From a virus (lineage: Duplodnaviria; Heunggongvirae; Uroviricota; Caudoviricetes), in IMG/VR virus record IMGVR_UViG_2684623171_000001: a stretch of 39,217 bases of DNA. One strand, 5' to 3'. Positions 9,800-33,054 of this stretch are shown here, in pieces. Position numbers and translations under genes: made by a program. Each line of letters opens with the position of its first letter. The first letter of the stretch is position 1. The notes beneath the pieces were generated by a model. The model was not told the DNA's origin and did no database searches. It was given only the letters and a program-made list of their open reading frames with translations.

Positions 9800-10225
9800 A
9801 TGGCAGAAACTCAGATGAGCATGTTTGGTGGTGACAGTGAGCAACTGCACGCCCTTATCGACCGCCTTGATGACATCCCTGATGATGTTCTCAAAAAGAA
9901 CTGGCCGCGGACCCTGTCAGAACTGGTTGAAGTCACCGGCGCAGAACTTCAGCGTCAGGGGATTGAGCCGGTACTGGCCGGTAAACTGGCACGCAAGGTG
10001 GCTGCGGCTCAGGCAGCCTATATGGGCGGACGGGGTTATTACCTGCCGGTCGGGGAATCTCTCTTTGCCGAGCTGCGAAACAATGAGATATTTTCGCGCT
10101 GGGACCGGGGCGAGAAAATTGAATCCCTTCGCCGCCATTACCGGATGTCAGAAACCCAGATTTATACCGTCATACGCGAACAGCGCCGTCTGCATCTGGC
10201 AAGAACGCAACCGCCACTTTTCTGA
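9800..10225 (+). CDS. Mor/C-family transcriptional activator
   Basis: 141 aa; C-terminal region GGRGYYLPVGESLFAELRNNEIFSRWDRGEKIESLRRHYRMSETQIYTVIREQRR fits the Mor/C pattern as I recall it; GGAGG RBS. Confidence 0.7.
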   Translation: MAETQMSMFGGDSEQLHALIDRLDDIPDDVLKKNWPRTLSELVEVTGAELQRQGIEPVLAGKLARKVAAAQAAYMGGRGYYLPVGESLFAELRNNEIFSRWDRGEKIESLRRHYRMSETQIYTVIREQRRLHLARTQPPLF

Positions 10226-10296
10226 TATTCCGCAAAGCCTGCCGCCTCTCCTTCACCGTTACGCTGACTCAGAGAACATCATGAGACAGCGTAACA

Positions 10297-17539: not shown

Positions 17540-18013
17540 ATGTCATCCATCGATGCAGCCGTGGTGGTGGACGTTGCGCGTCTCCAGCGGGTCTTTGCCC
17601 GGCTTCAGTTTGTGGGTGGTGGAAAAGACCTGGCCCGCAGTGTGGCGTCCAGCCTTCTGTCATCGTCAGAAATGGCGTTTGAACAGGAAAAAGAGCCGGA
17701 CGGCGAACGCTGGCATGACTGGTCAGATCCTTACCGCAAGTGGCGTACCCGTAAGGGAAACATGCCCGGCAAAATCCTGACGCTGAACGGCGATCTGGCC
17801 CGACGCCTGACCACGGATTATGGCGATACCTGGGCGCTGATTGGATCAAATGAGCCTTATGCGGCCATTCATCAGTGGGGTGGCCTGCCAGGTATGCCGC
17901 CTGGACCGGCGGCCATTGGTGCACGTCCGTATATGGGTTTTGATCAGGTGGCAGAGCAGGAGATCATGGACGAAATCAGAAAACGCTTTAAAAAGGCCAC
18001 AGAAACGCCTTAA
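17540..18013 (+). CDS. G: Virion morphogenesis protein (Mu G-like)
   Basis: 157 aa; GGAGG RBS; position and size match Mu G. Confidence 0.6.
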   Translation: MSSIDAAVVVDVARLQRVFARLQFVGGGKDLARSVASSLLSSSEMAFEQEKEPDGERWHDWSDPYRKWRTRKGNMPGKILTLNGDLARRLTTDYGDTWALIGSNEPYAAIHQWGGLPGMPPGPAAIGARPYMGFDQVAEQEIMDEIRKRFKKATETP

Positions 18014-18189
18014 TTGTTTAAGGTATGCAAATGCATTACCTTACCCCCTTCAGGCGCGTGTCGTGATTTTCTAACCTGTATTTAACGGGCTTTAAAATCT
18101 GCGTGAAGCGCCTTTGTATTTTTCCCCTGGAAGCACTTCCTGAAATCCCGCAAAACCCGCCCTGAAAATTCCCGGCCTATGCTGCCGGA

Positions 18190-19314
18190 ATGAAGACGAA
18201 AAACACGCCCAAACTTGCTTATGCCATTCTGAATGCCATCAGCCTGTCCGCAGACGGGGACGGTGACTGGTGTCAGATCATGCCAGCCGGTCGGGTAAAG
18301 GCCCGTGACGGTCGCCCGGAAAAACCGGCGGAAGGCTGGCTGATCAACCATGCAGCCGTTGAGCGCATGGTCTCCCGTGTTGTGGCGCTCAATCAGCCGG
18401 TGAAAATTGACTACAACCACCAGACCCTGATTGAGGGACATCCGGCACCGGCTGCCGGTTTTGTGATGGCCTCACCGGAGAATTTTCGCTTCAGTGAAGA
18501 GCGAGGTTTCGAGGTGCGCCCGAAGTGGAACCCTCCGGCCCTTGAACATCTGCGTAATAACGAATTCCCCTGGTTTTCACCGGTGATTGGCTATGACGAG
18601 AACACCGGCGAACCTGTCGAACTTCGGATGCTGGCTATTACCGGTGACCCCGGTCTGACCGGCATGAATCCTGTCGCCGCGCTGTCGGCGGATGACCTTT
18701 ATAACGCCTTAAACCCTCCTTTAAAGGATACCTCCATGAATGAGCAATTACGCCAGTTGCTGACGGCGCTCGGTCTGACCGTGGCTGACGGTGACGAATT
18801 TACGCCGGAGCTGGGCACGGCGGCGCTGTCTGCCCTCACCGGGATCAAAACCCGTGCGGATGCACACGACAACCTGAAAACACAGGTCGCCAGTCTGTCG
18901 GCAGAGCTGGAAACCGCAAAAGGCACACCGGCTGGCGGCATTATTGATCTGACGAAATACGTGCCCGTTGAAACGTATAACGCCCTGCGTACCGAATACG
19001 TTGCGCTGTCGGCGCAGCACGGCAGCACCACGCTGGAGCAGGTGCTGGACAAGGCTGAATCCGAAGGGCGCATCTTCAAAAGCGAACGCGGCTATCTGGA
19101 ACAACTGGGCGGGCAGATTGGCGTTGCGGCACTTTCTGCACAGCTTGACGCCCGCCAGCCGGTTGCGGCCCTGACCTCTCTTCAGACCGACACCGTGACC
19201 GTGCCGGATAAAAAGACTGCCACCGCTGCGCTGTCGGCTGAAGATATCGCGGCCGCCAAACTGCTGGGTAAAACCGAAGCCGAGTTCCTGAAAATGAAAG
19301 AGGAAATGCAATAA
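18190..19314 (+). CDS. I: Head protease/scaffold protein (Mu I-like)
   Basis: 374 aa immediately before the major head gene; Ala-rich C-terminal scaffold-like half. Confidence 0.65.
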   Translation: MKTKNTPKLAYAILNAISLSADGDGDWCQIMPAGRVKARDGRPEKPAEGWLINHAAVERMVSRVVALNQPVKIDYNHQTLIEGHPAPAAGFVMASPENFRFSEERGFEVRPKWNPPALEHLRNNEFPWFSPVIGYDENTGEPVELRMLAITGDPGLTGMNPVAALSADDLYNALNPPLKDTSMNEQLRQLLTALGLTVADGDEFTPELGTAALSALTGIKTRADAHDNLKTQVASLSAELETAKGTPAGGIIDLTKYVPVETYNALRTEYVALSAQHGSTTLEQVLDKAESEGRIFKSERGYLEQLGGQIGVAALSAQLDARQPVAALTSLQTDTVTVPDKKTATAALSAEDIAAAKLLGKTEAEFLKMKEEMQ

Positions 19315-20304: not shown

Positions 20305-20691
20305 ATGAATGAACATCACACTGTGGCAGCAACAGATGATTCAGGTCTTCAGGTCAGTGGTGACAATTCTGTCACGGTGCTGGCAGAAGTGCGTTGCAGT
20401 CGTTCGGCGTTTCGTCGTGCGGGGTTCCTGTTCACGCGTGGACGTCAGCAGGTTGAGGTCACCCCGGAGCAGCTTGCCCGACTGGAGGAGGAGCCATGCC
20501 TCACTGTGCGAATACTACAGACGTCTGCTGATGATGCGGGGAGCGTGGCGGGTGTGGTTCATGCAGTGGCCGGTACAGATTTAGCCGAAGCCGAAGCCGA
20601 AGCCGAAGCCGAAGCCGAAGCCGAAGCCGAAGCCGGACAGGATGCTCCCCGGAAAAAGACCGGTAACAAAGCGGAACAGGCCCGTGCATGA
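20305..20691 (+). CDS. Small head-region protein with an internal (Ala-Glu)8 repeat
   Basis: 128 aa; GGAGGG RBS; contains LAEAEAEAEAEAEAEAEAG encoded by a tandem hexanucleotide repeat. Confidence 0.5.
   Translation: MNEHHTVAATDDSGLQVSGDNSVTVLAEVRCSRSAFRRAGFLFTRGRQQVEVTPEQLARLEEEPCLTVRILQTSADDAGSVAGVVHAVAGTDLAEAEAEAEAEAEAEAEAGQDAPRKKTGNKAEQARA
20584..20637 (+). repeat. Tandem hexanucleotide repeat (GCCGAA)x8 plus one GCCGGA unit, in-frame in a coding region
   Basis: Directly visible: eight perfect GCCGAA units at 20584-20631, then GCCGGA. Confidence 0.95.
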
Positions 20692-26476: not shown

Positions 26477-27812
26477 CGGTCGTGGTGCGTTCCGTGGTGT
26501 GCCGTTCCTCGTCTGGCGTGAGCAGCGCGAACGTGGCGGGCGAAACATTGTCCGTCGGGAATATCCGTTACGGGAAACCGGTGGTGCAGACGATCTGGGA
26601 CCTAAACTGGCTGAATTTACGTTCAGTGTACTTGTGATGGGGGATGATGTTCAGACACAGCGAAATCGTCTGCGTGATGCCCTTCGTGCTCCCGGTGCCG
26701 GGGAGCTGCTTCACCCGGATTACGGCACGTTAAATGTGCTGATAAACAGCTTTGAAAGTCGTTATAACGCTGCTGAACAGGGCGTGGTTGAGTTCACCAT
26801 TAATGTCACGCCGGTAAGTGATGATACCGCACCTGCTGTCACACAGGACACGGCCGCCATTCTGGAGCAGAAGAGTACCACCGCGCTCGGGAAGGTTTTT
26901 GAAACCCTGGAAGCGGGCTGGACGGTGATTTCTGACGGAATGCACGATGTCCAGGCAATGACCGAAACCATCAGCGATAAGGTGTCCGCCCTGGAAAATG
27001 CCGTTTCCGGCATGGGGATTGTACAGGATATCAGTGCCTTTACTGCCACGTTCACGGCGCTGAAAGGGAATGCCACGGCATTACTGACAGCACCTTCCCG
27101 CATGGCCTCATCTTTTGCGGGGCTTTTCAGTGCCCTGATCACCCTGCCATCGCTGCCGTCACTGTCTTCAGGAGGCCTGAATACCCGGCCCGGTGGCAGT
27201 ATCGGCCGGACGACATCCGCCTTCTCTCAGGGAATGCCGCAACTGTACAGGACATTATCTTCCCTGCGTTACGTGCTGGATGAGCAGGATAATCCGCAGA
27301 CTCTCATCGGTCTGACACCGGCAGCACAAAAGAATATTCGTCTGATACGGGCGGTAATGCAGAGTGCTGCCGTGGTGGCCCAGGCACAGACCGTGGGAAA
27401 ACTGCTGGATCAGGTTCTCAGTCAGGAAACCCTGCCGGACAGTGACGCAGCCCACCGTACCTGGCCTGTCTGGCTGGAAAGTTCAGTTGATCTTCAGCGC
27501 ATTAACCGTGACTTAAGCGAAGCGCTCGAACGGCAGGTGATGACACTGTCCGGGCAGGGGTATACCGCCACGGCGCTGACGCTTCGTGATGCCAGACTGG
27601 CACTGACAGAGGATCTGAATACACGGGGAGTTCAGCTACCCGGTGCAACAGTAGTGACTGTACGTACCACCGAGCCTGCACTGGTGACCCTGTACCGTGC
27701 CACCGGGAACAGTACCGGCTGGCAACGTTTTGTGCGCCGTAACGGTATTGTTGATCCGCTGTTCATTCCCGGAGGCCATTCAGTGGAGGTGATTAGTGAG
27801 CAGCAGGGTTGA
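26442..27812 (+). CDS. N: DNA circulation protein (Mu N-like); start may be the Met at 26463
   Basis: 456 aa after the tape measure; GGAGGG precedes the in-frame ATG at 26463. Confidence 0.6.
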   Translation: MSGTEGIMASGDGRGAFRGVPFLVWREQRERGGRNIVRREYPLRETGGADDLGPKLAEFTFSVLVMGDDVQTQRNRLRDALRAPGAGELLHPDYGTLNVLINSFESRYNAAEQGVVEFTINVTPVSDDTAPAVTQDTAAILEQKSTTALGKVFETLEAGWTVISDGMHDVQAMTETISDKVSALENAVSGMGIVQDISAFTATFTALKGNATALLTAPSRMASSFAGLFSALITLPSLPSLSSGGLNTRPGGSIGRTTSAFSQGMPQLYRTLSSLRYVLDEQDNPQTLIGLTPAAQKNIRLIRAVMQSAAVVAQAQTVGKLLDQVLSQETLPDSDAAHRTWPVWLESSVDLQRINRDLSEALERQVMTLSGQGYTATALTLRDARLALTEDLNTRGVQLPGATVVTVRTTEPALVTLYRATGNSTGWQRFVRRNGIVDPLFIPGGHSVEVISEQQG

Positions 27813-28920
27813 ACTGTATCTGGGCGGTGAGATTTTTTCCGGCTGGCTGACGGTGAGTGTTCGTCGCTCTCTTGAACATCTGGCGGGCTCCTTTGAACTG
27901 GGGGTAATGATGCCCGGTGTACGCCTTCCGTCATCCGTCCGTGCCGGTCAGTCTCTGGAATTGCGCATTGACGGTCAGCCTGTGATCACTGGCTGGCTGG
28001 ATCAGGTCCGGCAGCGCATCAGCGCCACGCGTTTTCAGATCACGCTCAGCGGACGGGATAAAACCGGTGACCTGGTGGACTGTTCAGCCATTCATCCGGG
28101 CAGCCAGTGGAGGAACCGCACGCTGGAGCACATTGCTTCAGATTTGTGTGCTCCGTTCGGGGTCACGGTGCGCTGGCAGGTAAATGATGCAACGGCAGCC
28201 CGGCCCTTTTCCACCTTCACACTGGAAAACTCAGAAACCGTGGCAGATGCGCTGACACGGGCCGCGAGACACAGAGGCGTCCTGGTAACCAGTAATGCCG
28301 CCGGTGAACTGGTTTTCACTCAGGCCGGCAGTCAGCGTGGCGACACGCTGACGCTGGGCGAAAATCTGCTGGATTTGGATCACAACGTGGATCACCGTCT
28401 GCGCCACAGTGAATACCGTGTACGGGGGCACGGGCGTGGTGGTGGTCATGCCGGGGATGCACTGACAGCCGGAACGCTGGCCGCACCCGTTGGTACGGTG
28501 ACAGACAGTGCCATCCACCGTTACAGACCGAAAATTGTGCTGGCGGATCATGCTGTTGATGCAGACGGTGCACGCCAGAGGGCTGTCCGGGAAATGCGCC
28601 GGGCGGTTGCCCGCTCTGTGCGCCTGACAGCCACCGTGCGGCACTGGTTTCGGGAGAACGGCCAGTTGTGGGATATCAACCTGCTGACGGCTGTCACGGC
28701 TCCCCGCACCGGAGTGGAAGAGCGTGATCTTCTTGTCTGTCAGGTGGAGTTTTCGCTGGATGCAAATCACGGCGAAACCACCCGTCTGATTCTGGCACCC
28801 CGTGACGGCTTTATTGTTCCGGCAGAGCCGGGAAACAGCGGAAGCGGAAATGCGGGTGACGTGGACGCCTTCGTGCGGGCACAGATGAAAAAACAGGGGA
28901 TTAAATTCAATGATGAATGA
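27796..28920 (+). CDS. P: Baseplate protein (Mu P-like)
   Basis: 374 aa; synteny. Confidence 0.65.
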   Translation: MSSRVELYLGGEIFSGWLTVSVRRSLEHLAGSFELGVMMPGVRLPSSVRAGQSLELRIDGQPVITGWLDQVRQRISATRFQITLSGRDKTGDLVDCSAIHPGSQWRNRTLEHIASDLCAPFGVTVRWQVNDATAARPFSTFTLENSETVADALTRAARHRGVLVTSNAAGELVFTQAGSQRGDTLTLGENLLDLDHNVDHRLRHSEYRVRGHGRGGGHAGDALTAGTLAAPVGTVTDSAIHRYRPKIVLADHAVDADGARQRAVREMRRAVARSVRLTATVRHWFRENGQLWDINLLTAVTAPRTGVEERDLLVCQVEFSLDANHGETTRLILAPRDGFIVPAEPGNSGSGNAGDVDAFVRAQMKKQGIKFNDE

Positions 28921-32532: not shown

Positions 32533-33054
32533 TTATTCCGGTTTTTCCGGCCAGGGAATCGCCTGGTAATGCCCCTCACTGGCAATATCATTAAAGTGCA
32601 TTTCTTTAAGCTGTCGGATATACGCCATCCAGCGCGTCAGCTGTAATTTATTTTCATCGCTAATCATGTCCAGTTTTAATTCCGTTTTCCAGTCATCCAC
32701 AGTTTCGTTGGCTTCCTGGAGCAGCGATGAGCGGCGCTTTTCAGCAACCGTCTTCCAGTTTACCGGCACCTTTGATATCAGGCCATCAGAAAACTGCCAG
32801 TTACCGTCAATATTCACACCTTCCGGCAGTTCGTCCACTTCAACAACAGTAAAACCTGCCGGATATAAAGCAGAGACATCTTCAGCAACAGAGCAGATAA
32901 TACCCGTTACAGGCGAAATACAGAGTTTGTATTTCTTTGTGAAAAGCGGGATAGATTCATAAAAATCCCTTCCGTCCTCACTCTGGAAATACTGAACATC
33001 CTCACCATAGGGTTTGTGTTCCGGGTAATATCGTTTTACGTTAATAAGCTCCAT
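32533..33054 (-). CDS. Tail fibre assembly chaperone (Tfa/U-type), co-oriented with the silent alternative tip
   Basis: Met at 33054 (MELINVKRYYPEHKPYGEDVQYF...) with a typical Tfa N-terminal motif; AGGTGA RBS; the track ORF extends upstream but this start is better supported. Confidence 0.65.
   Translation of the reverse strand: MELINVKRYYPEHKPYGEDVQYFQSEDGRDFYESIPLFTKKYKLCISPVTGIICSVAEDVSALYPAGFTVVEVDELPEGVNIDGNWQFSDGLISKVPVNWKTVAEKRRSSLLQEANETVDDWKTELKLDMISDENKLQLTRWMAYIRQLKEMHFNDIASEGHYQAIPWPEKPE

Follow-up and report, generated by a model that had tools for sequence, protein, structure and literature searches.

In phage Mu, G ends at 17859, the annotated gyrase cut site falls at 17879-17880 and I starts at 18056, leaving a gap of 196 bp that carries the central strong gyrase site (SGS). 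The Mu SGS is the top gyrase-motif site of the Mu genome (Sutormin 2019), and its parts differ in their reported contribution: the right arm is essential, the left arm is removable without effect, and the core and left arm tolerate change (literature including PMC10052514). A passage in PMC3820752, citing Oram & Pato 2004, describes SGS-type sites as confined to Mu-like prophages, and a passage in a 2023 review (PMC10052514, citing the same work) states that, among the foreign gyrase sites tried, one alone promotes Mu replication in place of the Mu SGS, namely that from the Mu-like prophage of E. coli O157:H7 Sakai. Mu late promoters, one of which (PI) serves gene I, have a -10 element, no -35 element and a C dyad centred at -43.5, with the consensus TTAT-N5-6-ATAA (PMC2582627, PMC12867686).

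The window analyzed here, a stretch of 39,217 nucleotides from IMG/VR virus record IMGVR_UViG_2684623171_000001, holds a Mu-like transposable prophage that encodes a MuA transposase, a Mor/C-family activator, G and I (protein families from Pfam). From the ORF ends, the gap between G and I spans 18014-18189, exactly 176 bp, and we consider it about 85% probable that this spacer combines three functions in one compact control region: a gyrase site, the terminator of the lys-to-G transcript and the late promoter PI (Table 1). The preliminary description had called the gap non-coding and without an ORF at the junction, and both statements were borne out by the ORF ends, Pfam and ORF checks. No credible gene was found in the gap: the only ORFs there, of 20 and 23 amino acids with TTG/GTG starts, were rejected as genes, as was an antisense ORF of 119 amino acids (18082-18441) that is interrupted by stop codons in relatives. 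Rfam and a simple promoter and terminator scan of 17800-18400 likewise returned nothing. Relatives' loci were collected by an I-protein search of viral contigs (a search of genome contigs gave one locus only), and a non-coding G-I gap of ~170-240 bp was kept in 36/36 relatives checked.

Table 1. Features of the G-I spacer and of related elements in the window
Feature	Position	Strand	Basis or remarks
C homologue, Mor/C-family activator	9800-10225		Pfam
Candidate lys late promoter	10222-10272		C-box CTGATATTCCGCAA, which overlaps the C-activator stop codon; -10 TACGCT at 10260-10265
G	17540-18013	+	PF05069, virion morphogenesis (Pfam)
Predicted gyrase G-segment and cleavage core	18015-18050		Cut expected at ~18029-18035; Mu register and local matrix maximum
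SGS right-arm homologue, invariant 67-bp block	18048-18114		Conservation, identity to Mu and phasing
Terminator-like RNA hairpin and U-rich tail	18052-18124	+	Fold energy; hairpins of Mu and relatives
A/T tracts of the right arm	18066-18074 (ATTTTCTAA), 18079-18085 (TATTTAA), 18091-18098 (TTTAAAAT)		
Variable T/C-rich linker with indels	18115-18139		58% of columns variable; length changes within the clade
C-type activator box, CTGA-AATCCC-GCAA plus AACC (predicted)	18140-18157	+	1/18 columns variable
-10 hexamer TATGCT of PI	18178-18183	+	Invariant in the clade
I start codon, predicted transcription start	18190-18192	+	-10 ends 6 nt before the ATG
I	18190-19314	+	PF10123, Mu-like prophage I protein; protease/scaffold head gene (Pfam)

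For exactly this sequence, the gyrase site has been described before. Prophage Sp18 was located in E. coli O157:H7 Sakai at NC_002695.2 5040971-5079729, and its 176-bp G-I spacer (5059233-5059408) was 100% identical to that of the window, so the function reported in the literature for the Sakai SGS bears on the window sequence. The G-I junction occurred in 228 of 5426 complete E. coli genomes, between the same two flanking genes every time; the analysis supplies base-level coordinates for the SGS and PI of this widespread O157:H7 Mu-like prophage. The window prophage itself is inserted in dcuC, at a junction common to only three O157:H7 FRIK strains; its right end (~38507-39217) adjoins the disrupted dcuC, whereas Sakai Sp18 sits in sorM. 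Such different sites in FRIK and Sakai are consistent with random transposition of the Mu type. Elsewhere in the prophage, the ORF at 20305-20691, which comes directly after the major head gene, holds 8.8 perfect tandem copies of the hexamer AGCCGA (20583-20635), translated as an (Ala-Glu)n run.

Counted from the G stop codon, the window and Mu spacers aligned without a gap (window position = Mu + 154), and GATTTT began at nucleotide 55 after the stop in both. The ungapped identity was 42/85 (z of about 5), while shuffles averaged 21.7 (sd 3.9) and 0/20000 of them came as high; register 0 was uniquely best, and other registers came nowhere near. Alignment with the Mu SGS was the check that had been put forward with the preliminary description, and the significant similarity that it revealed was concentrated in the Mu right arm, where identity was 32/46 (nucleotides 40-85) and rose to 21/24 for GATTTTCTAACCTGTATTTAACGG (18065-18088). 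The conserved part of the spacer corresponds to the Mu right arm within the 133-bp Mu SGS fragment of Sutormin et al., and the Mu cut at 17879/80 projects, by the ungapped register, to 18033/34 of the window. The earlier placement of the gap at the same relative position as the Mu central SGS also held: beyond the collinearity from the G stop, 18.3 of the prophage's 38.8 kb (47%) lie to the left of the site, which is equally central with that of Mu (49%). Together with the identity to Sp18 and the reviews that report the Sp18 SGS to be functional in Mu, the right-arm similarity supports the candidate SGS proposed for this gap, and the preliminary reading, made from raw sequence, had placed both the Mu central gyrase site and PI correctly. 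Inside the predicted cleavage core lies an imperfect palindrome, TAAGGTATGCAAATGCATTACCTTA (18019-18043). As an RNA terminator hairpin it was rejected, given that the outer 6-bp stem is kept but not the inner one, and that compensatory changes are lacking.

Conservation within the clade was patchy, in a way not expected of chance or neutral drift. Among 20 unique clade sequences, only 3 of the 67 columns at 18048-18114 were variable (4%), against 28% of third-codon positions in G and 46% in I. Variability was near-neutral in three segments of the spacer, 18014-18047, 18115-18139 and 18158-18177; the first of these, which includes most of the predicted core, had 24% variable columns in the same 20 sequences, a level that fits the tolerance to change reported for the Mu core. 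The right arm also showed a periodicity of strong and weak bases of 11.25 bp (shuffle p = 0.01), close to the 10.75 bp of Mu (p = 0.007). These sequence comparisons support the assignment of 18048-18114 as the putative SGS right-arm homologue and the most conserved part of the spacer. That the Sp18 lineage keeps mainly the right arm agrees with the experiments showing that the right arm matters.

A general gyrase motif gave a less pointed result. From 428 pairs of coordinate and score published for W3110 1-200 kb (Sutormin 2019), we rebuilt a symmetric 130-bp gyrase matrix by ridge regression. The rebuilt matrix is an approximation, with a cross-validated r of 0.85 and an error of some 1.6 bits, and extra anchor points brought no improvement. 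It gave the Mu SGS a score of 10.4, rank 4 of 36588 Mu positions and an underestimate relative to the published 14.3. The window site scored 6.0 by this approximate matrix, which places it in the top 1.1% of E. coli background and at rank 740 of 39088 in the window; the local maximum, at 18029 (6.0) and 18031, fell in the same register as the Mu peak at 17876/7. On the same approximate scale, the window and its closest relatives scored 5.5-6.8 (top 0.5-1.7% of E. coli background) and other relatives 9-12.7 just after G, the site of the window lineage being the lowest in the family, while five loci (L004, L023, L029, L027 and L039) reached 11.5-12.7 after G, four of them with rank 1-2 in their 4-kb loci. 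Where the Mu right arm has its first A/T tract, the window has ACCCCCTTCAGG, which is the likely reason for the lower score of the window site. Homology, conservation, position and the literature support the SGS; the general motif score does not single out the site. Across diverged Mu-like phages, nonetheless, a strong gyrase motif directly after G is conserved. An alternative scoring, by strong/weak correlation with the published 133-bp gyrase consensus, was dropped because it ranked the Mu SGS only 233 of 36585. As a separate observation, the left arm of the predicted gyrase site falls inside the 3' end of G (17950-18013) and scored in the top 0.1-3% of background in every relative; gyrase wrapping, in addition to coding, may shape this part of the gene.

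The same conserved block can be folded as RNA. The hairpin at 18052-18113 comprises an outer stem, AGGCGC/GCGCCU, and an inner stem, CGUGAUUUU/AAAAUCUGCG, and is followed directly by a U-rich tail, UUGUAUUUUUC (18114-18124). Its fold energy was -23.7 kcal/mol (z = -3.3), a value that 0/200 shuffles equalled. The homologous stretch of Mu forms ACGGGAUUU/GAAUCCCGU, then UUUUAUCUU (z = -3.2), and three other relatives (L023, L029 and L036) have a compact hairpin and then a U-run, U-rich in L023, at the same place. The simple terminator scan of 17800-18400 made no call on this hairpin, because the loop is long, and no covariation or compensatory changes were seen for its stems among the relatives. 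From the modelled fold, the hairpin and U tail are probably the 3' end of the lys-to-G late transcript. For Mu, Zha, Zhao and Howe reportedly mapped, in 1994, the 3' end of the lys transcript between G and I.

Downstream of the linker, the layout is that of a Mu late promoter. The core of the predicted activator box, CTGA-N6-GCAA (18140-18153), is followed by 24 nt and then the -10, a spacing equal to that of Mu Plys and Pmom; the dyad centre of the box, 18146.5, lies at -43.5 from the predicted +1 at 18190; and no sigma-70 -35/-10 pair was found in the scan of 17800-18400. The 20 nt upstream of the -10, between it and the box, had 40% variable columns in the clade. Among 11 relatives examined, Mu included, the pattern yTnA-N6-rYAA-N24-(-10) had exactly one spacer match in 10, with ~0.004 expected by chance. 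The window box matches the Mu consensus TTAT...ATAA at only 3/8 positions, a divergence that fits an activator only 39% identical to Mu C, for which a shifted specificity is expected. Upstream of lys there is a near-identical box, CTGATATTCCGCAAAGCC (10222-10239); TACGCT follows it after the same 24 nt, and transcription is predicted to start ~25 nt before the lys ATG (10297). The relaxed box/-10 pattern had three matches on the whole + strand, namely those of I and lys and one at 32839, in the tail-fibre region, that is probably due to chance. Searches ahead of the P homologue (27796) and of com/mom, over 27500-27830 and 37300-37500, gave no C-box/-10 of the lys and I type. Upstream of com (37400-37440) there is a GATC cluster, GATCGTTTTTGTCGATCGATTGC, which resembles the Dam/OxyR-controlled region upstream of Mu Pmom. 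The suggestion that a C-dependent late promoter would sit in this gap is supported by the Mu geometry, the lack of a -35, the duplicate at lys and the conservation in relatives, and PI is best described as a routine homologue of the Mu promoter whose C-dependence is predicted from these motifs.

What lies between PI and I is less routine. In the window, I has no usable Shine-Dalgarno sequence and no earlier in-frame start, and the same arrangement, with the -10 ending 6-7 nt before the I start and no Shine-Dalgarno sequence, was shared by L004, L010, L023, L025, L027, L029, L031, L036 and L039. Given that distance and the missing Shine-Dalgarno sequence, the PI transcript is predicted to be leaderless, with the I mRNA starting at the A of the ATG. 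Mu differs, in that 32 nt separate the -10 of PI from the I ATG, leaving a leader of ~26 nt with a Shine-Dalgarno sequence. Within the Mu leader (18036-18058, locus L003) lies a mini-ORF of six codons, ATGATGAGCAGCAGGACATGA, and its stop overlaps the I start (ATGA). The overlap points to translational coupling in Mu, at the position at which the relatives are predicted to lack a leader. We advance only tentatively, and at well under even odds, the joint proposal that the 67-bp block is read twice, as DNA in the gyrase-wrapping right arm and as RNA in the terminator of the upstream late operon, and that I is translated from a leaderless, PI-only mRNA in the window, as in most of its enterobacterial Mu-like relatives. 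If this proposal were true, read-through transcripts, lacking a ribosome-binding site, would give no I expression, and head assembly would be strictly dependent on the late activator. Our reading goes beyond the literature reached in two respects only, the predicted leaderless start of I and the sharing of one block by terminator and gyrase arm.

The coincidence of the two signals in one block raises the question of which of them is responsible for its conservation. One possibility is that the block is retained solely for intrinsic termination of the lys-G transcript; gyrase binding in this lineage would then be vestigial or weak, and a shared terminator, not a shared gyrase function, would account for the resemblance to the Mu right arm. 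Its boundaries do coincide with the hairpin arms (18052-18113), with the U tail directly after them, relatives have a terminator-like hairpin at the same place, and both the moderate gyrase-motif score and the loss of the first A/T tract would be accommodated. A stem and tail would suffice for termination, yet the whole 67 bp, loop included, is invariant; relatives of the L023 type conserve the phased A/T tracts apart from a compact terminator downstream; and the identical Sakai SGS supports Mu replication, according to the passage in the review cited above (PMC10052514). We regard an exclusive role in termination as unlikely.

Less probable still is that the spacer holds only the promoter and leader of I, the remainder being neutral filler where other Mu-like phages hold accessory genes, anti-CRISPRs for example. 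There are clear promoter elements, and the near-neutral rates in the segments 18014-18047, 18115-18139 and 18158-18177 are what filler would show, but synonymous sites vary far more than 18048-18114, a block homologous to Mu, and the length and layout of the gap are conserved across distant relatives. The conservation pattern already contradicts this reading.

Under the preferred reading, that of a control region with three functions, host gyrase would bind with the cleavage core about 20 bp after the G stop and wrap the 67 bp of right arm that follow; the A/T tracts there, in phase with the helix, would make it easier for the DNA to wrap on the GyrA C-terminal domain and for the T-segment to be presented. 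Acting processively from its central position, gyrase would introduce supercoils that help to join the prophage ends for replicative transposition, as shown for Mu. This gyrase mechanism is transferred by homology from Mu, the function of the sequence itself being reported in the literature. Transcribed into RNA, the right-arm block would form the hairpin and U-rich tail that end the lys-to-G late transcript. A C-type activator would bind CTGA-N6-GCAA at -43.5 and, with sigma-70 RNA polymerase, fire a promoter that has a -10 only, and the PI transcript of I would start at or next to the A of the ATG; for the terminator and for the activator and promoter, we infer these steps from the elements described above.

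Set beside known systems, the locus shares its gene junction with an anti-CRISPR locus. Pseudomonas Mu-like phages carry anti-CRISPR genes at the identical junction, between G and the protease/scaffold gene, whereas neither the window gap nor that of any relative examined contains an ORF. With the Mu SGS, the window site has in common its place just after the G stop and at the genome centre, an indel-free register, a homologous right arm and phased A/T tracts; it differs in core sequence, in being without the first right-arm A/T tract and in its lower general gyrase-motif score. As in the terminator of the Mu lys transcript, a hairpin and U-rich tail stand between G and PI and the inner stem is homologous, but the window adds an outer GC stem and a long structured loop, and termination there is predicted. 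The putative late promoter resembles Mu PI, Plys, PP and Pmom in having the box at -43.5, 24 nt to a weak -10, no -35 and a Mor/C activator encoded upstream, and departs from them in its box, CTGA-N6-GCAA instead of TTAT-N5-6-ATAA. Nearest of all is the SGS of Sp18, from which the window spacer does not differ.
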